Below, piece after piece: positions 2,566 through 16,862 of a stretch of 64,000 nt of DNA (positions within the stretch are counted from its first letter, which is position 1; each line of letters begins with the position of its first letter). The notes below the pieces were generated by a model. The model ran no database searches, had not been told where the DNA came from, and saw only the letters and a program-made list of their open reading frames with translations. Made by a program: the position numbers and the translations under genes. This DNA is from Giardia intestinalis (lineage: Eukaryota), in assembly GCA_000002435.2 (NCBI GenBank), contig CM018790.1; one strand, 5' to 3'.

Positions 2566-4102
2566 TTGCCTTTCAAACTTTTAAACTACGTATATCCTAT
2601 ACGTATTTTTCAGATAGCATGACTGATAAGGCTTCTCTTTGTCCCATCTGAGATCGGAGAACCCGACCGTACCACACTTCGCGAAGATGTGTTTGTCTCA
2701 AACAGCATCAGGGTCACATATTCACCAGAAGAGGACGGGGGTTTGCCTGATGAAGAAGGCGACGTGTCCTCTGAGGCTCGATACAGACCCCGCTTGCTAG
2801 CTGCTACTGTGACAGGCCTATGTGTGCTTGCTGCCGCATTTCTTGGGGGAGCATTCAAGGAGTAGAGAAACCCATATCTTATACTGAGAAAGGCCGAAGA
2901 GAGGGTCTCAGATACAGGTGAAAGGATCCTTCCTTCAAAGATACTTTAGTAACACTGGTGTAGACAGAAGCCAAGAAGGCTGAATCTAATTTGGATAGTT
3001 ATGTCATTGTAACACCACCCAATAGCTTGCTGAGAATTAGGACTTTGCCAGTGGGGTGTGTGGTTGTGCTTGAAGTTGAGCCACACGGAGTTGATGGTTA
3101 GACTACAAAGTAGTCGAGTTGAAGCTGTTACAACTCCAGCGTATGGGAAGAATGCAAGTGGGCGAGTTGATCACTCGTTAGCTGTTCTATCCTTGGCCAA
3201 ACCACTTGGCCGTTCGCGTTCATCCTGTATATAAGATAGTGAATGCGCATGTAACCCTCAAGAAATGCTTTATGGGAGAAGCAGTGTAAGCGTATCGAGG
3301 AACAGAAGCACGGAGACTTCTCTTAGCTACATCAAGCAAATGCTAAAGAGGGCTGCTAGTCGGAGAGTGCTTTTGGATCTGCAGTAGGATGGCGAGCAGG
3401 CATCTCTCTTGTGGAGCCGTGTGATGCCCGTTATTTGGCATGCAAAGAAGATACCATCAGGCTTAGCCAGAAACAGCCGAACAGCCTTTCATATGGTCTA
3501 CCGGAGTCATTCAATACACAAAGACGAGGCACTGTCTCATTACCACAGCGGTCTTGACAAACCCAGGCGTGCAAATGCCAACAATGCAAGCGGGACAAGT
3601 ACCATATCGATAGAGACTTGGATCTCAAAAGCAAACAGAGAGCACCGACCGCTACAGCGTGTGCTTATGCTGTCATGTATCTAACACCAGCAAGTATAAT
3701 TAGTAACAGGTCACTTGTAGGGAGTCATTGACTGCAGTGTAGCAGTGAGCAAAAGATCTAGCGTCCATTATTTGTGATTCTTAAATGCGCGAACGTTGTT
3801 CACAGTTAATAGACTACTCCGAAGGTGCCAGGCACCGAAGAATGTACGGCTAGACGTGGCGGCCACAAATCATGTACAGAAACATCAAACTAAAAAGTAG
3901 GCGGTTACGGGCGACTTTCATGGATGCATTCAAGGAATGACTGAGGCATTGTTAGGCCTGCATAATGTATCTATCGCAGGAGAGATACAGGAGCTGATAG
4001 ACACGTAGCTTACTACAATAAGTCGACAAGCAAAGCGTGGTTCAGGAGGATGCGAACCACTGTTGCATATATTAGGTTGTTGGGTTATGCCCATAAGCAT
4101 CC

Positions 4103-7100
4103 TGTGGACCGAGGCCTGCGCTCCTACACTACAGTGCAGCGGGCGGACGAGGCAGAGCCTGAATGGTATCGGAATTCCGGGGCAAGGGCTGAGCCGCGAC
4201 TGAGAGAGCAGCCTGCAGAGGGTGGAGCATAGCTCTCTGCTAACTCGAGGCGGCACAACCTGGCAATAGGACGGCTAATCCAGCCGTATTGACGTCTGAT
4301 AGACGCACCGAATACGCACTTCATGACCTCCGAATATCGTATGATGTGTGCTGGACAAGGGCCTCCCGGTGCACTTCGAGGACAGGACTGTTTAGCTAAA
4401 GCTAGAAGAGCGGTTGAGTCGTTCCCATCGGCGGCGGATGCTGCCCTGTGGACGCATATTTAAGGCTGCATCCCTTCGACTGAGCAGACAGCCGCTGGGT
4501 TACGTGCGAGCGGCCCAGGGTCTCGCCTGCCGCCTGTCCGGGCCAGTCAGCAGCTAGACTCGACATGCAGATGGAAGCCATGATAACGGACGCCGTCACG
4601 GAGGTCCGCCGTTTACTACTAGAACGGACGTGTCCGTGGCGGCCACCGTCTCCTAGAACAGCGCCCCCCCGCACAGGGCCGGCTATGTCGCGCCAGCTTG
4701 CTCGATAAGGGGCATGGGGGTCCCTTACGACGCCCTTCGGCATCTGCCGTGTCATAGGTACCCATGGCCACGAGCAGCTCAAGGGACGCAGCTATGTGGG
4801 CAGGGTAGCGTATTCATGGAGGGGCAGCTGCTTCACCTGTGCATGGCGGCGCCGGCCAGCACGTCTAGCTGCCCCACTGGCGACCACTCCTTCCCTGTGC
4901 TTGCCACAATGGGAGAGCACGTGCGCCCGTAGACCGGCAGATGCCGTGCTGGTCCTCTCGAGCAGTAGGCGCATCCTTGCGTGACATTCAGCGTGGACCA
5001 GATACCATGACCTGGGCCATCGCTACTGGCAAAGCAAGTGCTGATTGCAGCAGGGACGCCCGCCGCCCTCCAAGATAGACCAGCAACTTGCGTGTGAGGC
5101 TAGCGATGGGGCCTGCGCACCAGCTGCTATGAGCCCAGCCTTCCGGGCATCTAGATCACAGCACACTCGTCAAAGATGCACACTCATTTGCATACTCGCT
5201 GCTAGCGTTGGACAACTGCGAGGTGTCTGTCTCCGGCCGCGCTTGCCTTAGTGCTGGTCCCTGGTGATACGCCTCAGCCGAGGAGGCTATCCGTACGCGG
5301 CAGTTCCCGGAGAGAAGGCAGGGGTGACCGGCGGGCCAGGGAGATAGGACTAGCACTAGCGAGTCCAGCCATCGGCCCGGGTTGCACAAAGGACGCCTGT
5401 AGTGCCTCCCCGGCTTCTGAGCATGGAAGGGCTGTGGGGTCTGCAGATGAGACGGACGCTGTCTTTTGATTTTATGTGTTTGTAGCAGCATAGTATTTAT
5501 CGGGGTCTGCTCTGTCTGAAACCGAGAACATTCGCTTTCTTTCCTTATACAGGCTGGGATCGATTGTAGAGGTGTGCTGTGCAAACCGGTGGCAGTCAGC
5601 GTATCTACTATCCAAACGGATACTGCCTGCGTCCTCTTGTGGCAGACCACCACCAGGGCTCCAATCTGCACATCTGTTCTGGCATCTGTCGGCCAATCAT
5701 CACCTCCTGTCGAAGGATTGCTATACGTCACATATCTTGAGTCGTTCATCGACCAGGTGGTGCCATAAGCTCTTGTCTCCTACTTGTCCACCCGATGCTT
5801 ACTCTGAGCGCCGTCAATTCACTCACGTCTGCACTACTCATCTGGGTGCCCCCTACTCTTCAAGAGCACATGCCCGCAACCGATGCTCCGTATTACGAGA
5901 GGAGCCAGCCGGGCCACTGCGCTGTGCATAGCTCTCATGGGCGTATTGTTATGCGCGCCCAGCCTTTCCACCTGTAAGCTGTCACGCGGTCACATGTGCG
6001 CCAGCGCCGCCGAGCTTTCGTGGTCTCGAGGGGCCCCTGATGCATGGAGCGCTTGCGCAAAGTCCTTCCACCACTGACCCAAGCCGACCCCTCGCAAGAT
6101 CCTCAGCGGAGTTGCATCCGAGATGTGTGCTTGCATTGCTGTCCAGGTGCATGTGCCGGCCCTGGTGCTTCTCACAAGCTTGCGAGCATCAATCTGGCCT
6201 CTACCGAACCGTATCAGAAATCAACGTCAAGACGTGATCCCCTCAGTCAGGCTCTGCAGGCTCCCAGAGCTACGCACCAAAGGGCCGTTCTTCTTTGGTT
6301 GTGCAGTGTGGGGAGATCCATCGAGCTACCACACCCTTTCTGTGTGGCGTGGTTTACGACGGGGGACGGGATCCCTGTGCTCATTGTCTATCTGCCCAGG
6401 GCCAGCCACAGCCCGGGTTGACAATGACAAGCGAACATCGCCCGGCTCCTTGTCAGCAGGTGGGAACTTCCGCCACCCCAGTACCCACAGCAACGGGTGC
6501 CGATCACTGGCAGAAGGACAAGACACCCAGGCTCCCGTTCCTTCCACTGATGGTAGCCCACTATGAAGAGCCCTTTGCCGCCTGCACCAACAACCTCAGG
6601 CACTGTGGGTCCAAGTACTTCCATAGTGGACAGCGGTAGCACTATGATGATCTGGGGTGACAGGAGTCCTAGTTCACTGGCTCAGGAGACAGCACGCTTT
6701 GGGTAGTGCTTCCATCTTGTCCAGATCTGGGAGGGCTGGCTGCCTTCTGAGCCCACCTGGCACCTTGTCAGGTGATGGAGTGTCTTAAAGTATTCATTAC
6801 AAAAGATCAGAAATAGCGCCATGCATTCCCAATAGATCAGAGCGTCTCACGAGCTACTCTATGCTGATTCACACCTTTCATGGACCCTAGCGACCACTGT
6901 AACCTTCTTTCGGGATCTCGCAAGGGACTGTCCTTGAGTGCGATTCCCCCACGACAGCCGGAAGTCGCAGACATAATCCAAAGGGATGAGAGTACTACAG
7001 AGGCTGAGAGGAGAGTGCCGATGCACAGGGGTCCGCAGAGACCCGACTCGTACAGGGAAGGCGTGGATGCTGGCTCTCCAGGGATGTAGAGACACCAGGA

Positions 7101-8170
7101 AAGGAGCCGGCAGTGGGGCTTAGGCGCAGCAAAGGCACCCGATTCGTTCTCTGATTGGCCGCGAGGCAGCAGGCACATGGGGCGGCATCACCGCTTGTTT
7201 TTGGATTTTCTGTTTCCCTGCGCGTTGTGCAGGGGTCCGTAGTGGTTTGAGTATCACAGGCTACACATAGTAGATGCGTTTACTACCTAAGTCATATCTA
7301 AATCTATGCCTTTCCGCGGCAGAGGAACCACCAGCAGAGGAAGCCGACGAGGCCCCCGACGATGATGACAGCGGCCACGGCGATGCCTGCAATGGCGCCG
7401 GTAGAAAGGCCACTCTTGTTCGTGCTTCCGCCGGCACTGTCACCGTTCATGAGGTAGCAGAGGACGGAGCCTTGATTATTAGATGGAGGAGCGCAGCTCA
7501 TGCAGCCAGTAACTCCCTTGACACTTCCACTGTTGCTGTCACACGAAGTGCATGGTCCAGCTGCTGATCCGACCATATAGTACCCAGCTGCGCATGACGT
7601 ACACTTATCAGAGCTATCTGCAGTCGAGCATGTCTTGCAGGTCGAATGACACGAGGGGCATGCTCCATTATTGGGCTGAAGACCATTGGCACATGTTTCG
7701 CACTCACCCTTGCTATCAGCTAATGTGCATATCTGTTTGCCTGGCTGCTTGGTAGTTTCATAGCAGCCGCCTTCCTTGAGGAAGTAGTTAGCGGCGCATT
7801 TGGTACATGCTCCATTATTCATTTCAGTACAGAAAGCTACTCGTGCGTTACTTGTTGTACAGACCCCGTTCAGAGGAGCCTGATTATCCACTGAGCACTG
7901 GGAGCAGTAGTCTGTCCCGCCGATCCTTGCCCCACAGACCTTACATCCGTTCTTGTCCGCCGTACACGCATCCCCGCAGGTGCCCCCTTGCATAGGATCA
8001 CTACTTTTGTATATTAATGCCTTGCCAGCAGGACAAGCACTACACTGATTGTTGGCTGGCCCAACGCACTCAGCGCACTCAGGGCTGCATGCCTTACACT
8101 TCCTGTCAGTATCTCCATAGTATCCGCTGATGGCCGTGCAGTCGGATACGCACTGATTTGTTGGAGTGAG
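4103..8170. repeat. Left arm of a ~4,068-bp near-perfect inverted repeat. Contains the last ~880 bp of VSP coding sequence on the minus strand, its AGTAAAC poly(A) signal and ~3.2 kb of GC-rich ORF-poor sequence.
   Basis: Every ORF in 3930-8188 has an identical mirror ORF in 11626-15711 on the opposite strand with coordinates summing to 19814 (e.g. 4402..4782(-) <-> 15032..15412(+); 7304..8188(-) <-> end of 9211..12510(+)). Outer boundary checked by reverse-complement comparison at 4103/15711, inner boundary at 8170/11644. Confidence 0.92.
7278..7284 (-). terminator. Giardia-type polyadenylation signal AGTAAAC (AGTPuAAPy) downstream of the left VSP C-terminal segment (mirror of 12530-12536).
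   Basis: Reverse complement of gtttact at 7278-7284. Lies 20 nt past the stop of the 7304..8188 ORF. Confidence 0.5.
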
Positions 8171-8892
8171 GTAGTTCCACCATTGCACTCAGTATAGGCT
8201 TCGTTCTCTTTGCCTTCGTTATTGCACGTCTTACAGCCCGGTGTTATGCAGTTGCTAGTCGATTGGCATTCAGTTGAATCAGCGCTAGGCTGGAAGCCTT
8301 CACTGTATGTGCAAGCACCACCCTGATTGGACGAGTTGGCAGGGCAACTAGCAACGCACGACTTTTTGTTGAGGCCAAAGATGGTCTTATCAGAATCGGG
8401 GCACTCTTTGCATACTGCTCCGTCGCCGTTCTTTTCACAAGTCTTACAATCTTTTGCCCCGCCCGATGTGCAGGTAGTGCAGGTTTTCGCTGCTTCATCT
8501 ATGTAGTGTGTTGCTGGGCAATCGCCCTGATTAACGCACGTGCCTGTCTCACTGCCATCCTCCTTCTTCAGGTAGAGCGTGGCTCCAGTACACGAGGTGC
8601 ACTGCGTCTCTGTATTCTCGCATGTCTTACAGCTGGAAGCACATTTGCTGCATTTCTTTCCATTACGTGAGTCCACAAAATACCCATTATTGTAATCGGC
8701 CTCCTCGACACACGACGTTACGCCGTCGACTGTCTTGACAATCTTGCCGCCTCCACATGCATTGCACATCGCTGCCTTAGTGTTACTAGGATTAGCTGGC
8801 GTATTTGCTATCTGAATGAGTATTGTGTCGTGGTTTCCCGCAGCGGAGAAACCGCCACAGAAGAAGCCGGTGGGATCACCGGTGATAAACAT
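7304..8892 (-). pseudogene. Variant-specific surface protein (VSP) pseudogene or chimera. The N-terminal Cys-rich segment (8014..8892) is joined out of frame (-1 nt) to the duplicated VSP C-terminal region (7304..8188). No signal peptide after its first ATG.
   Basis: Two overlapping minus-strand ORFs in different frames. The upstream one is CXXC-rich (CKTC, CTSC, CKEC...). The downstream one is identical to the C-terminus of the intact VSP, including the TM segment and CRGKA tail. Comparison with the right copy shows a 1-nt length difference at the junction (left aatggtggaactacc vs right aatgataaaagttatc), which is exactly the repeat boundary. In-frame upstream sequence hits TGA with no hydrophobic leader. 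Confidence 0.6.
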
Positions 8893-9210
8893 AGCAAAGG
8901 TAAGGTTGTACGAGGGTCAGTCCTCTGAATACATTTGTGCAGAGAACCACCGAGGGAATCAGAACAGATACAAGTGGGCTAGAGGCTTTGTTATTGAAAC
9001 AGGAACCTGCTACGTCAACGATGAAAGCCCGTTCTTGGCTTCAGAGGCAGAGTCATGACAGTAGCTAGCCACTGAATGATGACGCATCCATTAGAGCTTA
9101 TTGTTCTCAACGTCTGGATCTACAATCAGATTAGTGGCAGTCCATAGTTTTACTATTGCAATTCTTCGAAGAGCAGACGCGAGTCGATAACCGAGTGTAG
9201 GTTTCGGCTA

Positions 9211-12200
9211 ATGTTGCTAGGGCTTCTCCTATTTTGTGCAGTAGCACGGGCAAACTGCAAGGCCGGGAACACGCCCTCACAAGACGGGACGACGTGCGAG
9301 CCGAATGCAAACGGATGTGCCAAAGCCTTGACCGACGCCGGCTGTGCGACCTGCACCCCGGCGGGTGACGACCAGACGTGCCTCACCTGCAACCCCGGTT
9401 CAAACAAGGTCAGGCCGGACAGGAAGGGCTGCATCGCTTCGTGTCCCGCCAACTCGAACGAGGCAGGAGGAATCTGCACGTGCACGGCCGGGAACACGCC
9501 CTCACAAGACGGGACGACGTGCGAGCCGAATGCAAACGGATGTGCCAAAGCCTTGACCGACGCCGGCTGTGCGACCTGCACCCCGGCGGGTGACGACCAG
9601 ACGTGCCTCACCTGCAACCCCGGTTCAAACAAGGTCAGGCCGGACAGGAAGGGCTGCATCGCTTCGTGTCCCGCCAACTCGAACGAGGCAGGAGGAATCT
9701 GCACGTGCACGGCCGGGAACACGCCCTCACAAGACGGGACGACGTGCGAGCCGAATGCAAACGGATGTGCCAAAGCCTTGACCGACGCCGGCTGTGCGAC
9801 CTGCACCCCGGCGGGTGACGACCAGACGTGCCTCACCTGCAACCCCGGTTCAAACAAGGTCAGGCCGGACAGGAAGGGCTGCATCGCTTCGTGTCCCGCC
9901 AACTCGAACGAGGCAGGAGGAATCTGCACGTGCACGGCCGGGAACACGCCCTCACAAGACGGGACGACGTGCGAGCCGAATGCAAACGGATGTGCCAAAG
10001 CCTTGACCGACGCCGGCTGTGCGACCTGCACCCCGGCGGGTGACGACCAGACGTGCCTCACCTGCAACCCCGGTTCAAACAAGGTCAGGCCGGACAGGAA
10101 GGGCTGCATCGCTTCGTGTCCCGCCAACTCGAACGAGGCAGGAGGAATCTGCACGTGCACGGCCGGGAACACGCCCTCACAAGACGGGACGACGTGCGAG
10201 CCGAATGCAAACGGATGTGCCAAAGCCTTGACCGACGCCGGCTGTGCGACCTGCACCCCGGCGGGTGACGACCAGACGTGCCTCACCTGCAACCCCGGTT
10301 CAAACAAGGTCAGGCCGGACAGGAAGGGCTGCATCGCTTCGTGTCCCGCCAACTCGAACGAGGCAGGAGGAATCTGCACGTGCACGGCCGGGAACACGCC
10401 CTCACAAGACGGGACGACGTGCGAGCCGAATGCAAACGGATGTGCCAAAGCCTTGACCGACGCCGGCTGTGCGACCTGCACCCCGGCGGGTGACGACCAG
10501 ACGTGCCTCACCTGCAACCCCGGTTCAAACAAGGTCAGGCCGGACAGGAAGGGCTGCATCGCTTCGTGTCCCGCCAACTCGAACGAGGCAGGAGGAATCT
10601 GCACGTGCACGGCCGGGAACACGCCCTCACAAGACGGGACGACGTGCGAGCCGAATGCAAACGGATGTGCCAAAGCCTTGACCGACGCCGGCTGTGCGAC
10701 CTGCACCCCGGCGGGTGACGACCAGACGTGCCTCACCTGCAACCCCGGTTCAAACAAGGTCAGGCCGGACAGGAAGGGCTGCATCGCTTCGTGTCCCGCC
10801 AACTCGAACGAGGCAGGAGGAATCTGCACGTGCACGGCCGGGAACACGCCCTCACAAGACGGGACGACGTGCGAGCCGAATGCAAACGGATGTGCCAAAG
10901 CCTTGACCGACGCCGGCTGTGCGACCTGCACCCCGGCGGGTGACGACCAGACGTGCCTCACCTGCAACCCCGGTTCAAACAAGGTCAGGCCGGACAGGAA
11001 GGGCTGCATCGCTTCGTGTCCCGCCAACTCGAACGAGGCAGGAGGAATCTGCACGTGCACGGCCGGGAACACGCCCTCACAAGACGGGACGACGTGCGAG
11101 CCGAATGCAAACGGATGTGCCAAAGCCTTGACCGACGCCGGCTGTGCGACCTGCACCCCGGCGGGTGACGACCAGACGTGCCTCACCTGCAACCCCGGTT
11201 CAAACAAGGTCAGGCCGGACAGGAAGGGCTGCATCGCTTCGTGTCCCGCCAACTCGAACGAGGCAGGAGGAATCTGCACGTGCACGGCCGGGAACACGCC
11301 CTCACAAGACGGGACGACGTGCGAGCCGAATGCAAACGGATGTGCCAAAGCCTTGACCGACGCCGGCTGTGCGACCTGCACCCCGGCGGGTGACGACCAG
11401 ACGTGCCTCACCTGCAACCCCGGTTCAAACAAGGTCAGGCCGGACAGGAAGGGCTGCATCGCTTCGTGTCCCGCCAACTCGAACGAGGCAGGAGGAATCT
11501 GCACGTGCACGGCCGGGAACACGCCCTCACAAGACGGGACGACGTGCGTATCAGAGACGGCCTGCAATACTCCCAACTGCAAGGCATGTGATAACCCGAA
11601 GACTGACAGAGAGGTCTGTACTGAATGTAATGATAAAAGTTATCTCACTCCAACAAATCAGTGCGTATCCGACTGCACGGCCATCAGCGGATACTATGGA
11701 GATACTGACAGGAAGTGTAAGGCATGCAGCCCTGAGTGCGCTGAGTGCGTTGGGCCAGCCAACAATCAGTGTAGTGCTTGTCCTGCTGGCAAGGCATTAA
11801 TATACAAAAGTAGTGATCCTATGCAAGGGGGCACCTGCGGGGATGCGTGTACGGCGGACAAGAACGGATGTAAGGTCTGTGGGGCAAGGATCGGCGGGAC
11901 AGACTACTGCTCCCAGTGCTCAGTGGATAATCAGGCTCCTCTGAACGGGGTCTGTACAACAAGTAACGCACGAGTAGCTTTCTGTACTGAAATGAATAAT
12001 GGAGCATGTACCAAATGCGCCGCTAACTACTTCCTCAAGGAAGGCGGCTGCTATGAAACTACCAAGCAGCCAGGCAAACAGATATGCACATTAGCTGATA
12101 GCAAGGGTGAGTGCGAAACATGTGCCAATGGTCTTCAGCCCAATAATGGAGCATGCCCCTCGTGTCATTCGACCTGCAAGACATGCTCGACTGCAGATAG

Positions 12201-12510
12201 CTCTGATAAGTGTACGTCATGCGCAGCTGGGTACTATATGGTCGGATCAGCAGCTGGACCATGCACTTCGTGTGACAGCAACAGTGGAAGTGTCAAGGGA
12301 GTTGCTGGCTGCATGAGCTGCGCTCCTCCATCTAATAATCAAGGCTCCGTCCTCTGCTACCTCATGAACGGTGACAGTGCCGGCGGAAGCACGAACAAGA
12401 GTGGCCTTTCTACCGGCGCCATTGCAGGCATCGCCGTGGCCGCTGTCATCATCGTCGGGGGCCTCGTCGGCTTCCTCTGCTGGTGGTTCCTCTGCCGCGG
12501 AAAGGCATAG
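9211..12510 (+). CDS. vsp: Variant-specific surface protein (VSP), intact, 1099 aa. Has signal peptide MLLGLLLFCAVARA, ~10 identical 75-aa Cys-rich tandem repeats, conserved C-terminal Cys-rich region, a TM segment (GAIAGIAVAAVIIVGGLVGFLCWWFL) and the CRGKA cytoplasmic tail.
   Basis: ATG at 9211; many CXXC motifs; GGCY-like motif; C-terminal ...CWWFLCRGKA* is the invariant Giardia VSP tail; AGTAAAC poly(A) signal 20 nt after the TAG stop. Confidence 0.92.
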   Translation: MLLGLLLFCAVARANCKAGNTPSQDGTTCEPNANGCAKALTDAGCATCTPAGDDQTCLTCNPGSNKVRPDRKGCIASCPANSNEAGGICTCTAGNTPSQDGTTCEPNANGCAKALTDAGCATCTPAGDDQTCLTCNPGSNKVRPDRKGCIASCPANSNEAGGICTCTAGNTPSQDGTTCEPNANGCAKALTDAGCATCTPAGDDQTCLTCNPGSNKVRPDRKGCIASCPANSNEAGGICTCTAGNTPSQDGTTCEPNANGCAKALTDAGCATCTPAGDDQTCLTCNPGSNKVRPDRKGCIASCPANSNEAGGICTCTAGNTPSQDGTTCEPNANGCAKALTDAGCATCTPAGDDQTCLTCNPGSNKVRPDRKGCIASCPANSNEAGGICTCTAGNTPSQDGTTCEPNANGCAKALTDAGCATCTPAGDDQTCLTCNPGSNKVRPDRKGCIASCPANSNEAGGICTCTAGNTPSQDGTTCEPNANGCAKALTDAGCATCTPAGDDQTCLTCNPGSNKVRPDRKGCIASCPANSNEAGGICTCTAGNTPSQDGTTCEPNANGCAKALTDAGCATCTPAGDDQTCLTCNPGSNKVRPDRKGCIASCPANSNEAGGICTCTAGNTPSQDGTTCEPNANGCAKALTDAGCATCTPAGDDQTCLTCNPGSNKVRPDRKGCIASCPANSNEAGGICTCTAGNTPSQDGTTCEPNANGCAKALTDAGCATCTPAGDDQTCLTCNPGSNKVRPDRKGCIASCPANSNEAGGICTCTAGNTPSQDGTTCVSETACNTPNCKACDNPKTDREVCTECNDKSYLTPTNQCVSDCTAISGYYGDTDRKCKACSPECAECVGPANNQCSACPAGKALIYKSSDPMQGGTCGDACTADKNGCKVCGARIGGTDYCSQCSVDNQAPLNGVCTTSNARVAFCTEMNNGACTKCAANYFLKEGGCYETTKQPGKQICTLADSKGECETCANGLQPNNGACPSCHSTCKTCSTADSSDKCTSCAAGYYMVGSAAGPCTSCDSNSGSVKGVAGCMSCAPPSNNQGSVLCYLMNGDSAGGSTNKSGLSTGAIAGIAVAAVIIVGGLVGFLCWWFLCRGKA
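9262..11547 (+). repeat. In-frame tandem array of ~10.2 identical 225-bp units inside the VSP gene. Each unit encodes 75 aa (...AGNTPSQDGTTCEPNANGCAKALTDAGCATCTPAGDDQTCLTCNPGSNKVRPDRKGCIASCPANSNEAGGICTCT).
   Basis: Identical shadow ORFs recur every 225 nt (9344, 9569, 9794 ... 11369) on the plus strand, and the minus-strand ORF 9153..11582 shows a matching 75-aa periodicity. No unit-to-unit differences visible in the translations. Confidence 0.93.
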
Positions 12511-15500
12511 ATTTAGATATGACTTAGGTAGTAAACGCATCTACTATGTGTAGCCTGTGATACTCAAACCACTACGGACCCCTGCACAACGCGCAGGGAA
12601 ACAGAAAATCCAAAAACAAGCGGTGATGCCGCCCCATGTGCCTGCTGCCTCGCGGCCAATCAGAGAACGAATCGGGTGCCTTTGCTGCGCCTAAGCCCCA
12701 CTGCCGGCTCCTTTCCTGGTGTCTCTACATCCCTGGAGAGCCAGCATCCACGCCTTCCCTGTACGAGTCGGGTCTCTGCGGACCCCTGTGCATCGGCACT
12801 CTCCTCTCAGCCTCTGTAGTACTCTCATCCCTTTGGATTATGTCTGCGACTTCCGGCTGTCGTGGGGGAATCGCACTCAAGGACAGTCCCTTGCGAGATC
12901 CCGAAAGAAGGTTACAGTGGTCGCTAGGGTCCATGAAAGGTGTGAATCAGCATAGAGTAGCTCGTGAGACGCTCTGATCTATTGGGAATGCATGGCGCTA
13001 TTTCTGATCTTTTGTAATGAATACTTTAAGACACTCCATCACCTGACAAGGTGCCAGGTGGGCTCAGAAGGCAGCCAGCCCTCCCAGATCTGGACAAGAT
13101 GGAAGCACTACCCAAAGCGTGCTGTCTCCTGAGCCAGTGAACTAGGACTCCTGTCACCCCAGATCATCATAGTGCTACCGCTGTCCACTATGGAAGTACT
13201 TGGACCCACAGTGCCTGAGGTTGTTGGTGCAGGCGGCAAAGGGCTCTTCATAGTGGGCTACCATCAGTGGAAGGAACGGGAGCCTGGGTGTCTTGTCCTT
13301 CTGCCAGTGATCGGCACCCGTTGCTGTGGGTACTGGGGTGGCGGAAGTTCCCACCTGCTGACAAGGAGCCGGGCGATGTTCGCTTGTCATTGTCAACCCG
13401 GGCTGTGGCTGGCCCTGGGCAGATAGACAATGAGCACAGGGATCCCGTCCCCCGTCGTAAACCACGCCACACAGAAAGGGTGTGGTAGCTCGATGGATCT
13501 CCCCACACTGCACAACCAAAGAAGAACGGCCCTTTGGTGCGTAGCTCTGGGAGCCTGCAGAGCCTGACTGAGGGGATCACGTCTTGACGTTGATTTCTGA
13601 TACGGTTCGGTAGAGGCCAGATTGATGCTCGCAAGCTTGTGAGAAGCACCAGGGCCGGCACATGCACCTGGACAGCAATGCAAGCACACATCTCGGATGC
13701 AACTCCGCTGAGGATCTTGCGAGGGGTCGGCTTGGGTCAGTGGTGGAAGGACTTTGCGCAAGCGCTCCATGCATCAGGGGCCCCTCGAGACCACGAAAGC
13801 TCGGCGGCGCTGGCGCACATGTGACCGCGTGACAGCTTACAGGTGGAAAGGCTGGGCGCGCATAACAATACGCCCATGAGAGCTATGCACAGCGCAGTGG
13901 CCCGGCTGGCTCCTCTCGTAATACGGAGCATCGGTTGCGGGCATGTGCTCTTGAAGAGTAGGGGGCACCCAGATGAGTAGTGCAGACGTGAGTGAATTGA
14001 CGGCGCTCAGAGTAAGCATCGGGTGGACAAGTAGGAGACAAGAGCTTATGGCACCACCTGGTCGATGAACGACTCAAGATATGTGACGTATAGCAATCCT
14101 TCGACAGGAGGTGATGATTGGCCGACAGATGCCAGAACAGATGTGCAGATTGGAGCCCTGGTGGTGGTCTGCCACAAGAGGACGCAGGCAGTATCCGTTT
14201 GGATAGTAGATACGCTGACTGCCACCGGTTTGCACAGCACACCTCTACAATCGATCCCAGCCTGTATAAGGAAAGAAAGCGAATGTTCTCGGTTTCAGAC
14301 AGAGCAGACCCCGATAAATACTATGCTGCTACAAACACATAAAATCAAAAGACAGCGTCCGTCTCATCTGCAGACCCCACAGCCCTTCCATGCTCAGAAG
14401 CCGGGGAGGCACTACAGGCGTCCTTTGTGCAACCCGGGCCGATGGCTGGACTCGCTAGTGCTAGTCCTATCTCCCTGGCCCGCCGGTCACCCCTGCCTTC
14501 TCTCCGGGAACTGCCGCGTACGGATAGCCTCCTCGGCTGAGGCGTATCACCAGGGACCAGCACTAAGGCAAGCGCGGCCGGAGACAGACACCTCGCAGTT
14601 GTCCAACGCTAGCAGCGAGTATGCAAATGAGTGTGCATCTTTGACGAGTGTGCTGTGATCTAGATGCCCGGAAGGCTGGGCTCATAGCAGCTGGTGCGCA
14701 GGCCCCATCGCTAGCCTCACACGCAAGTTGCTGGTCTATCTTGGAGGGCGGCGGGCGTCCCTGCTGCAATCAGCACTTGCTTTGCCAGTAGCGATGGCCC
14801 AGGTCATGGTATCTGGTCCACGCTGAATGTCACGCAAGGATGCGCCTACTGCTCGAGAGGACCAGCACGGCATCTGCCGGTCTACGGGCGCACGTGCTCT
14901 CCCATTGTGGCAAGCACAGGGAAGGAGTGGTCGCCAGTGGGGCAGCTAGACGTGCTGGCCGGCGCCGCCATGCACAGGTGAAGCAGCTGCCCCTCCATGA
15001 ATACGCTACCCTGCCCACATAGCTGCGTCCCTTGAGCTGCTCGTGGCCATGGGTACCTATGACACGGCAGATGCCGAAGGGCGTCGTAAGGGACCCCCAT
15101 GCCCCTTATCGAGCAAGCTGGCGCGACATAGCCGGCCCTGTGCGGGGGGGCGCTGTTCTAGGAGACGGTGGCCGCCACGGACACGTCCGTTCTAGTAGTA
15201 AACGGCGGACCTCCGTGACGGCGTCCGTTATCATGGCTTCCATCTGCATGTCGAGTCTAGCTGCTGACTGGCCCGGACAGGCGGCAGGCGAGACCCTGGG
15301 CCGCTCGCACGTAACCCAGCGGCTGTCTGCTCAGTCGAAGGGATGCAGCCTTAAATATGCGTCCACAGGGCAGCATCCGCCGCCGATGGGAACGACTCAA
15401 CCGCTCTTCTAGCTTTAGCTAAACAGTCCTGTCCTCGAAGTGCACCGGGAGGCCCTTGTCCAGCACACATCATACGATATTCGGAGGTCATGAAGTGCGT

Positions 15501-15711
15501 ATTCGGTGCGTCTATCAGACGTCAATACGGCTGGATTAGCCGTCCTATTGCCAGGTTGTGCCGCCTCGAGTTAGCAGAGAGCTATGCTCCACCCTCTGCA
15601 GGCTGCTCTCTCAGTCGCGGCTCAGCCCTTGCCCCGGAATTCCGATACCATTCAGGCTCTGCCTCGTCCGCCCGCTGCACTGTAGTGTAGGAGCGCAGGC
15701 CTCGGTCCACA
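11644..15711. repeat. Right arm of the ~4,068-bp inverted repeat (mirror of 4103-8170).
   Basis: Same as left arm. One confirmed difference: right 12304 g vs the complement of left 7510 t, giving VSP residue A vs T (GVAGCM vs GVTGCM). Confidence 0.92.
12530..12536 (+). terminator. Polyadenylation signal AGTAAAC (AGTPuAAPy consensus) for the VSP gene.
   Basis: agtaaac located 20 nt downstream of the TAG at 12508-12510. Confidence 0.55.
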
Positions 15712-15909
15712 CTTCAGTGTTACCCATTCCCATAGTGCAATCCGTCACATTAGAAGATCAAGGATGTTTTAGCTTAGTCTTTGCAACCATCTATGAAGAG
15801 TGCTTCGCAAAGGAAAGAACATGGCAAAACTTTATTGGGACTTTGTCCAGCACTCTTCTAAGCCTAGAATCCGCATTGCCAACGACTAGGGAAGTATCGA
15901 ATGTTCTAG

Positions 15910-16862
15910 GAAACCGCTTGGAAGCACAGCCCACGATATGTTGCCCTGCAAGAGCCTTTCCCTTTAACTCGGCGCATTCAGCCATGCACTCCCACCTCTA
16001 TAGAATTCCGAGACGTCTGCTTTTCCTACAAGACGGGCTGCGATATTCTACATGGCTTGACCCTGTTTGTTCATCCCGGTCAGAAGGTTGCTATCGTGGG
16101 AGGTCGGGGATTGGCAAGTCCACGATCATCAACCTCTTGACGCGGCTATACACCACACCCCAGCATCAGGACACTTCGTCGCCCGGAATCTATCTCAATG
16201 GCAGGGCTATAGGGTCCATCCCACGCGAGGAGCTACGGAGGCTTATAACAGTCGTCCCGCAGGATAACATACTCATCAGGGGCTCTGCCACGGACAACAT
16301 CGCCTATGGACAGCCTCGCAAGCTCCCGGGCTCCCACGCAGAAGAGGAGCAGAGGCGCTACATCCGAGAAGTCATTCGGCTATGCTACGAGGCTTCCCGT
16401 GTTGTTGCGGCTGAAGAGCTCCTGGGAGACGCACCATACAGTGGAACCCTGCAGGGCCTTTCTGGGGGACAACGCCAACGGGTAGGAATTGCCAGAGCTG
16501 TCGCACGTGGAGGCAGCGTTCTTGTGCTCGACGAGGCGACGTCGGCACTCGACGAAGAGACAGAGAAGCGGGTCCTCCAACAGCTATTCCGCTCACTGGA
16601 CCCCAACCAGAGCGTCGTCATTATCAGTCACAGACTCTCCACTCTCCGGTATGTCGACCTGATTTATGTCCTAGATAATCCAGATGGCAGTGGAGCGCGC
16701 GTGGTAGAGTCAGGCTCGTACGACTGGTTCGTTGCCGAAAGCCAATATCTGAAGGATGCAGGCCAGGATATCTCTGACCTTGTGAGTAACTGTGGCTGTA
16801 GCAGCGCAGGTGTTACCCCAGGCTTCTCCCATGCAACTCTTGATGCAAAGGGGGATCCGTAG
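15910..16862 (+). pseudogene. ABC-transporter C-terminal nucleotide-binding-domain remnant (ABCB/MDR-like NBD). No start codon or transmembrane domain, and a 1-nt deletion (G-run ~16098-16104) splits the Walker A motif between two frames.
   Basis: Frame +1 (15910-16110): ...SIEFRDVCFSYKTGCDILHGLTLFVHPGQKVAIVGG. After the shift, frame 0 continues: SGIGKSTIINLL...IAYGQP...LSGGQRQRVGIARAV (ABC signature)...VLVLDEATSALD (Walker B)...ISHRLSTL (H-loop). The long 15558..16862 ORF only seems to start inside the inverted repeat because the repeat's GC-rich DNA reads open in that frame. Confidence 0.7.

Follow-up and report, generated by a model that had tools for sequence, protein, structure and literature searches.

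A uniform 225-bp tandem array in the Giardia intestinalis VSP gene vsp165, probably an old architecture under homogenisation

[quoted passage not shown] The gene proved to be vsp165. Its repeat units are identical to the base, apart from one substitution at the edge of the array. We conclude with high confidence that this is a genuine, catalogued tandem-repeat VSP, the array of which is probably homogenised by recombination or slippage within a repeat architecture that is probably old. The gene and its 225-nt repeat were catalogued in 2010, and the tandem-repeat class of VSPs has been known since the early 1990s, so that the array is, as such, already known.

We examined the anatomy of the array and found that it is the single strong array reported by Tandem Repeats Finder in the window, with 10.2 copies of a 225-bp unit at 9256–11548 (+), 99% matches, 0% indels and a score of 4579. 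When the array was cut into 225-nt units from position 9256 and these were compared unit by unit, units 2–10 were base-for-base identical, and unit 1 carried one difference, an A instead of a C at position 9260, which replaces Thr by Lys at the junction with the leader. In the phase starting from 9262, the ten full units are one sequence, and positions 225 nt apart agree without exception between 9261 and 11548 (lag-225 identity), that is, over 2,288 nt or 10.17 copies. Outside the array, on both sides, this identity drops at once to ~0.25, the random level; hence, the array has sharp edges and chance is excluded as the source of the pattern. The same lag-225 comparison revealed no degenerate flanking copies at the DNA level on either side. 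The period of 225 nt equals 75 codons and the array is in frame within the open reading frame (ORF) at 9211–12510. Each unit, with a GC content of 65%, encodes 10 Cys, two CXXC motifs (CATC and CLTC), one CXXXC motif and one CXC motif lying across the unit junction, and the array as a whole makes up residues 16–779, ~73% of the ectodomain. The first-pass annotation had described about 10.2 in-frame copies of a 75-aa Cys-rich unit with multiple CXXC motifs and had supposed, from shadow ORFs that recur every 225 nt, that there were no nucleotide differences between the units; both statements are borne out by the unit alignment. The shadow ORFs themselves go back to one antisense frame of the unit that is free of stop codons, as a count of the stop codons in each unit frame showed, and this frame gives an ORF of 809 aa on the minus strand (9153–11582) that spans the whole array. 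We rejected this ORF as a gene because it results from the tenfold repetition of a unit of 65% GC that has no stop codon in this reverse frame. Gene callers could mis-annotate a repeat-generated frame of this kind.

The ORF that carries the array, judged from its sequence, is a canonical Giardia VSP. An initiator-like TAATGTT, found by direct reading at 9209–9215 (+), overlaps the ATG at 9211. The translation opens with an N-terminal leader, MLLGLLLFCAVARAN, at 9211–9255 (+), which is presumed from the translation to be a signal peptide; the leader MLLGLLLFCAVARA is hydrophobic and is shared in nearly identical form with that of AS7, another VSP to which we return below. The first repeat unit begins 45 bp after the ATG, inside the distance of ~100 bp that is characteristic of tandem-repeat VSPs (PMC2996952). 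The array is followed by a non-repetitive, Cys-rich part of the ectodomain (11549–12414, +), which includes a GGCY motif at aa 945 and carries the match to the Pfam VSP family (PF03302, E=5.4e-88, 296 bits vs. a cut-off of 31.4), by a single C-terminal transmembrane helix (12415–12492, +) and by the invariant cytoplasmic tail CRGKA (12493–12507, +). Three repeat units searched alone matched no Pfam family at E<=0.1. The composition of the protein, with 143 Cys in 1099 aa (13.0%) and 34 CXXC motifs, is that of a Cys-rich VSP ectodomain, for which about 11–13% Cys is usual. The consensus of the Giardia polyadenylation signal is AGTRAAY, and a pattern search found a match to it, AGTAAAC, at 12530–12536 (+), 20 nt after the stop codon; together with the TAATGTT initiator, these are the signals typical of expressed vsp genes. 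The earlier description of this gene as an intact VSP agrees with the Pfam match, the CRGKA tail and, as described next, the identity of its product to an annotated VSP of the WB isolate.

We then compared the gene with earlier records. The protein encoded in the window has 100% identity at 100% coverage to KAE8302486.1/XP_001703907.2, annotated as 'VSP' in G. intestinalis ATCC 50803/WB clone C6. The gene for this record lies on a contig of 1,539,535 bp, which is one of the chromosomes in AACB03, the PacBio reference assembly (PMC7000408). The WB vsp catalogue of Adam et al. (2010, BMC Genomics 11:424, PMC2996952) lists vsp165 in its supplementary table as a complete gene of clade II on chromosome 2, labelled 'HH_TR225', with 225 nt per repeat and the initiator TAATGTT, and its product is given as 1024 aa and 101.5 kDa, with 133 Cys (13%) and 32 CXXC motifs. 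The removal of exactly one 75-aa unit from the window protein yields 1024 aa, 101.5 kDa, 133 Cys, 13.0% Cys and 32 CXXC motifs. Since all five values of the vsp165 entry are those of the window protein minus one unit, the window gene is vsp165. The two records further share the 225-nt unit, the head-to-head arrangement and the TAATGTT initiator, and the catalogue's chromosome 2 can be set beside the 1,539,535-bp contig, which is the second smallest of the five chromosome-scale contigs among the matches. They differ in length, the 2010 version being 1024 aa long and the window version 1099 aa, which is exactly one 75-aa unit more and implies that the older, Sanger-based sequence carried 9.2 copies vs. 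the 10.2 found here.

We next looked at the other tandem-repeat VSPs. Five further WB VSP genes, examined as retrieved proteins and thus at the protein level, have arrays of 74–76-aa units with zero amino-acid differences within each gene; these arrays hold 16.3 (P0002), 11.2 (P0003), 13.1 (P0005), 21.0 (P0121, AS7/vsp21) and 21.2 copies (P0124). Three-unit segments of the six genes align cleanly, with the ten Cys and a few Gly, Leu, Pro, Gln and Thr positions invariant, which indicates that the six arrays are homologous. Between the genes, however, the units are only 36–81% identical, and the vsp165 unit, for which the identity within the gene is 100% at the DNA level, shares 38–64% with the units of the five paralogous arrays. 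The closest paralog is AS7/vsp21 (GL50803_137717; AAN52110.1; XP_001709261.2), a TR225 gene on chromosome 5. Like vsp165, AS7 has the near-identical leader, a 75-aa unit with 10 Cys and the same junctions at the start and the end of the array: at the 5′ side, the array of either gene directly follows ...ARANCK, and at the 3′ side it ends with ...DGTTC, after which the sequence continues as V-SETACNTPNCK.CDNPKTD. The arrays of two further paralogs end just before the same NTPNCK.CDNPKTD segment. The non-repeat C-terminal parts of vsp165 and AS7 are 70% identical and their units 64%, and AS7 differs from vsp165 in having 21.04 copies in the long-read version and a 5′ edge copy that is unlike its interior. 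In this edge copy, AS7 reads AGNTPSANGQ, like the unit of vsp165, whereas its interior units read PGNKPSSDGT, which suggests that the edge escaped homogenisation, a classic sign of concerted evolution. Hence, the sequences point to a repeat architecture that is older than the split between vsp165 and AS7/vsp21, after which each gene would have fixed its own variant of the unit by concerted evolution.

The reading that competes most seriously with an old, homogenised array is a single, very recent amplification, in which one or ~1.2 units would have been multiplied in a burst of slippage or unequal exchange, so that the uniformity of the units would simply reflect their youth. The absence of any difference in 2,288 nt is what such a burst would leave behind. 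A head-to-head pseudo-VSP located 300 bp upstream, in which a module like the unit is present once and unamplified, also speaks for it, as does vspA6-S1, which has just over one repeat copy and is described beside vspA6 with ~23 (PMC2996952). We calibrated the age of the array against a neighbouring inverted repeat, the arms of which differ by 2 mismatches in 4,071 nt; at this divergence, ~0.56 substitutions are expected across the array and the Poisson probability of finding none is ~0.57. This allows an age similar to that of the inverted duplication, and it also means that an array without differences need not be younger than the duplication. A burst in vsp165 does not account for the rest of the family, in which six WB arrays are homologous and internally uniform and yet 36–81% identical to each other, nor for AS7, which shares both junctions despite its unit being 64% identical and which shows a homogenised 'PGNKPS' interior next to an 'AGNTPS' edge copy that escaped. 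To assume one old array evolving in concert is more parsimonious than to assume six independent recent bursts, and we consider the recent burst unlikely, although it deserves to be kept in mind. The first-pass annotation had read the perfect identity as a very recent expansion or contraction by unequal recombination or slippage. The zero divergence that it relied on stands, and its mechanism is largely right: identity at third-codon positions rules out selection at the protein level, and recombination or slippage is the probable cause. The dating is only one reading of the data, and the six homologous arrays and the junctions shared with AS7 favour a continuing homogenisation.

We also considered whether the uniformity could be an artefact of assembly or polishing, that is, whether the true copy number differs or the units are slightly divergent and were made identical by consensus polishing. 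Two assemblies of one isolate do differ by one unit, the authors of the vsp catalogue warned of repeat numbers condensed by assembly, and the new assembly was Quiver-polished and Illumina-corrected. However, a 2.3-kb array lies well within single PacBio reads and is flanked by unique sequence, namely 9211–9255 with the intergenic region upstream of it on one side and 11549–11640 on the other. The independent Sanger version, moreover, is shorter by exactly one unit in length, mass, Cys and CXXC number, which implies the same unit composition, and the same uniformity is seen in all the other tandem-repeat VSPs of the assembly as well as in the older cloned sequences AS7 AAN52110.1 and CRP AAB06228.1, which also consist of perfect units. 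We regard an artefact as very unlikely. Purifying selection on the protein sequence of each unit, suggested by the ten Cys and several Gly, Leu and Pro positions that are invariant across the paralogs and mark the module as structurally constrained, is effectively refuted by the identity at synonymous sites, because selection at the protein level cannot hold all 75 third-codon positions identical in ten units, and the non-Cys positions diverge freely between the paralogs (36–81% identity).

Several observations nevertheless weigh against a homogenised array of old architecture, or limit it. The catalogue gives 'Rep # 6' for vsp165, which fits neither 1024 aa (9.2 copies) nor 1099 aa and reflects either an internal inconsistency of the published table or another way of counting. 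The junctions shared with AS7 could stem from the independent amplification of an ancestor with 1.2 copies, comparable to vspA6-S1 (PMC2996952), and the uniformity within the paralogous arrays is a protein-level result. The copy number and the identity of each unit in vsp165 were read from a consensus that is blind to allelic heterogeneity, the genome being tetraploid and the sequence polished with Quiver and Illumina-corrected (PMC7000408). Finally, the putative role of this VSP as an antigen is taken by analogy from VspA6.

The records of these genes also differ in copy number. Adam et al. (PMC2996952) counted 30 complete tandem-repeat vsp genes, in which the units measure 105–516 bp, a range into which the in-frame 225-bp unit of vsp165 falls, and are present in two to >20 copies; they cautioned that the repeat numbers are approximate because arrays may have been condensed by assembly, and they cited allelic variation in copy number for vspA6 and vspC5. 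A 2022 preprint found tandem repeats in 36 of the 136 VSPs of the new assembly. Among the records that we retrieved for AS7 (P0121/P0004/P0122), the old genome protein shows 4.04 copies, the clone AAN52110.1 shows 5.04 and the long-read protein 21.04; for the CRP gene (P0124/P0006), the figures are 4.16 vs. 21.16. These several-fold differences between records of one gene make the older lengths of tandem-repeat VSP proteins unreliable. The 9.2 copies of vsp165 in 2010 and the 10.2 in the window would fit either real variation or condensation by assembly. The expectation of the first-pass annotation that copy number varies between clones and collapses in short-read assemblies is thus supported as far as unstable or under-assembled arrays are concerned, by the vsp165 entry that is one unit short and by the AS7 and CRP records, which real variation would explain as well as collapse. 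In a tolerant scan for periodicity, which covered all 125 VSP proteins retrieved, the only records with arrays were WB or old G. intestinalis ones; the proteins from P15, assemblage B and other short-read-derived sources among them showed no arrays, which fits both a true lack and a failure of assembly. A search of JGI metagenome contigs gave 0 matches to an exact 44-nt pattern of the unit.

A mechanism can be proposed for an old array that stays uniform. Right after the leader, one module of 75 residues and 10 Cys is present about ten times in frame, followed by an ordinary VSP C-terminal part of ~320 residues, the membrane anchor and the CRGKA tail. We infer that the units would be kept identical by out-of-register homologous recombination or by replication slippage between them, where the recombination may take the form of unequal sister-chromatid or inter-allelic exchange or of gene conversion. 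The same events would gain or lose whole units, so that the copy number would drift in steps of 225 bp, and the reading frame would be kept because 225 = 75 x 3. Each array would be continually homogenised in this way, within an architecture that would predate the split of the paralogs.

At the protein level, the array would lengthen the exposed rod of the coat protein and multiply one set of epitopes about tenfold. The best-studied comparisons are VspA6/CRP170 (vsp67) and VspC5 (vsp90), which, like vsp165, have an in-frame array of near-identical units soon after the leader and in which the copy number differs between alleles and clones (PMC2996952, PMC7332775). Their units are shorter, 195 bp/65 aa in VspA6 and 105 bp/35 aa in VspC5, with ~22–26 copies, and their expression and antigenicity have been shown experimentally, whereas vsp165 is known here from its sequence. 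The VspA6 repeat carries the epitope of the monoclonal antibody 6E7 and is immunodominant (PMC2996952, PMC7332775). By analogy, antibody would most likely focus on the repeat when the vsp165 product is expressed; the immunodominance that the first-pass annotation proposed for this repeat is inferred from the 65-aa repeat of VspA6/CRP170 only (PMC2996952, PMC7332775).

We also modelled the fold of the unit. Sequence searches with the full protein gave 0 matches among PDB chains at E<=0.01, and an AlphaFold2 model of three units, built from the six-row alignment of the paralogs, reached a mean predicted local distance difference test (pLDDT) score of 77.8 and a predicted template modelling (pTM) score of 0.41. 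The model has recurring short β-hairpins and one short helix per unit, and its best matches among solved structures are the furin-like repeats of R-spondin (Fu1-Fu2, PDB 4c8v) and the Cys-rich domains of the EGFR family (HER2/HER3). This suggests that the module may be a short stack of disulfide-bonded β-hairpins, loosely like furin-like or EGF-receptor Cys-rich repeats, which the predicted unit resembles in being a series of short, disulfide-rich hairpins. EGF-receptor domains were likewise indicated for VSPs by the Phyre2 modelling in a 2022 preprint.

The array lies in the spacer of the inverted repeat used for the calibration. The two arms, at 4103–8173 (left) and 11641–15711 (right), are 4,071 nt long each and 99.95% identical, the mismatches being at 7510/12304 and 8171/11643, and they are separated by a spacer of 3,467 nt that contains the array, with sharp boundaries on both sides. 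The right arm extends from VSP codon 811 to the stop codon, across a 3′ flank of ~3.2 kb, and takes in the first ~51 codons of an ABC-transporter-like ORF. In the left arm, the order is mirrored: it has the 3′ part of a VSP, the flank and a truncated 5′ fragment of the ABC-like ORF. Each arm thus holds the last ~289 VSP codons and a ~3.2-kb 3′ flank that is full of mirrored spurious ORFs. The ABC-like ORF at 15558–16862 (+) matches ABC_tran (PF00005, E=6.5e-18) and starts within the right arm. In the left arm, the region of 3930–4256 (−) has a truncated copy of the first ~51 ABC-like codons and then diverges. That the intact ABC-like ORF is at the right arm points to the left arm as the derived copy.

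The VSP part of the left arm belongs to the head-to-head pseudo-VSP with one unamplified unit-like module (7304–8892, −), which was recognised from translations, Pfam and BLASTP. Its C-terminal ORF (7304–8188, −) encodes 294 aa, ends with CRGKA and matches the Pfam VSP family at E=6e-86. Its N-terminal ORF (8014–8892, −) shows no obvious leader; a deletion of 1 nt, located precisely at the boundary of the inverted repeat, puts it out of frame relative to the C-terminal ORF. At this boundary, the similarity between vsp165 and the pseudo-VSP rises from ~55% to 100%. BLASTP aligns the module of the pseudo-VSP, with 47% identity across 90 aa, to the end of the vsp165 unit and the junction that follows the array; its presence as a single copy indicates that what vsp165 has amplified is an ordinary VSP module. 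The position of the pseudo-VSP fits the 'HH' label of the catalogue, and it is probably the HH partner, vsp166 (GL50803_112048), the listed 229 aa of which match neither ORF.

The array and the 4-kb inverted repeat might act jointly as one module prone to recombination, where gains or losses of units, together with gene conversion between the head-to-head VSP and pseudo-VSP, would give rise to new chimeric or resized surface antigens. We put this forward as a speculation of low probability. If it were true, there would be a source of VSP diversity at the DNA level alongside the epigenetic and RNAi-based switching of expression, and its driver might be the machinery that homogenises the four genome copies of Giardia to near identity. 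Elsewhere in the window, and unrelated to the tandem array, an ORF of 850 aa that starts near the window edge (13–2565, +) has a weak, sub-threshold match to the Syndetin C-terminal domain (PF10474, E=1e-5, 25.7 bits vs. a cut-off of 38.4).

The weight of these results is practical rather than conceptual, and the vsp165 array is unlikely to surprise specialists or to open a long-standing question. The length of a coat-protein gene of this kind cannot be trusted in short-read or Sanger assemblies, which differ from the long-read version by one unit in vsp165 and by 17 units in AS7, and this affects counts of the VSP repertoire, the assignment of masses in proteomics and the design of primers. 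As for the history of the array, 'continuing homogenisation of an old array' should replace 'very recent expansion'; a recent burst, which is less probable, would need to have recurred separately in several of them. In summary, the pattern of uniformity within and divergence between the six paralogs illustrates concerted evolution in an organism that is tetraploid, putatively asexual and almost free of allelic heterozygosity.

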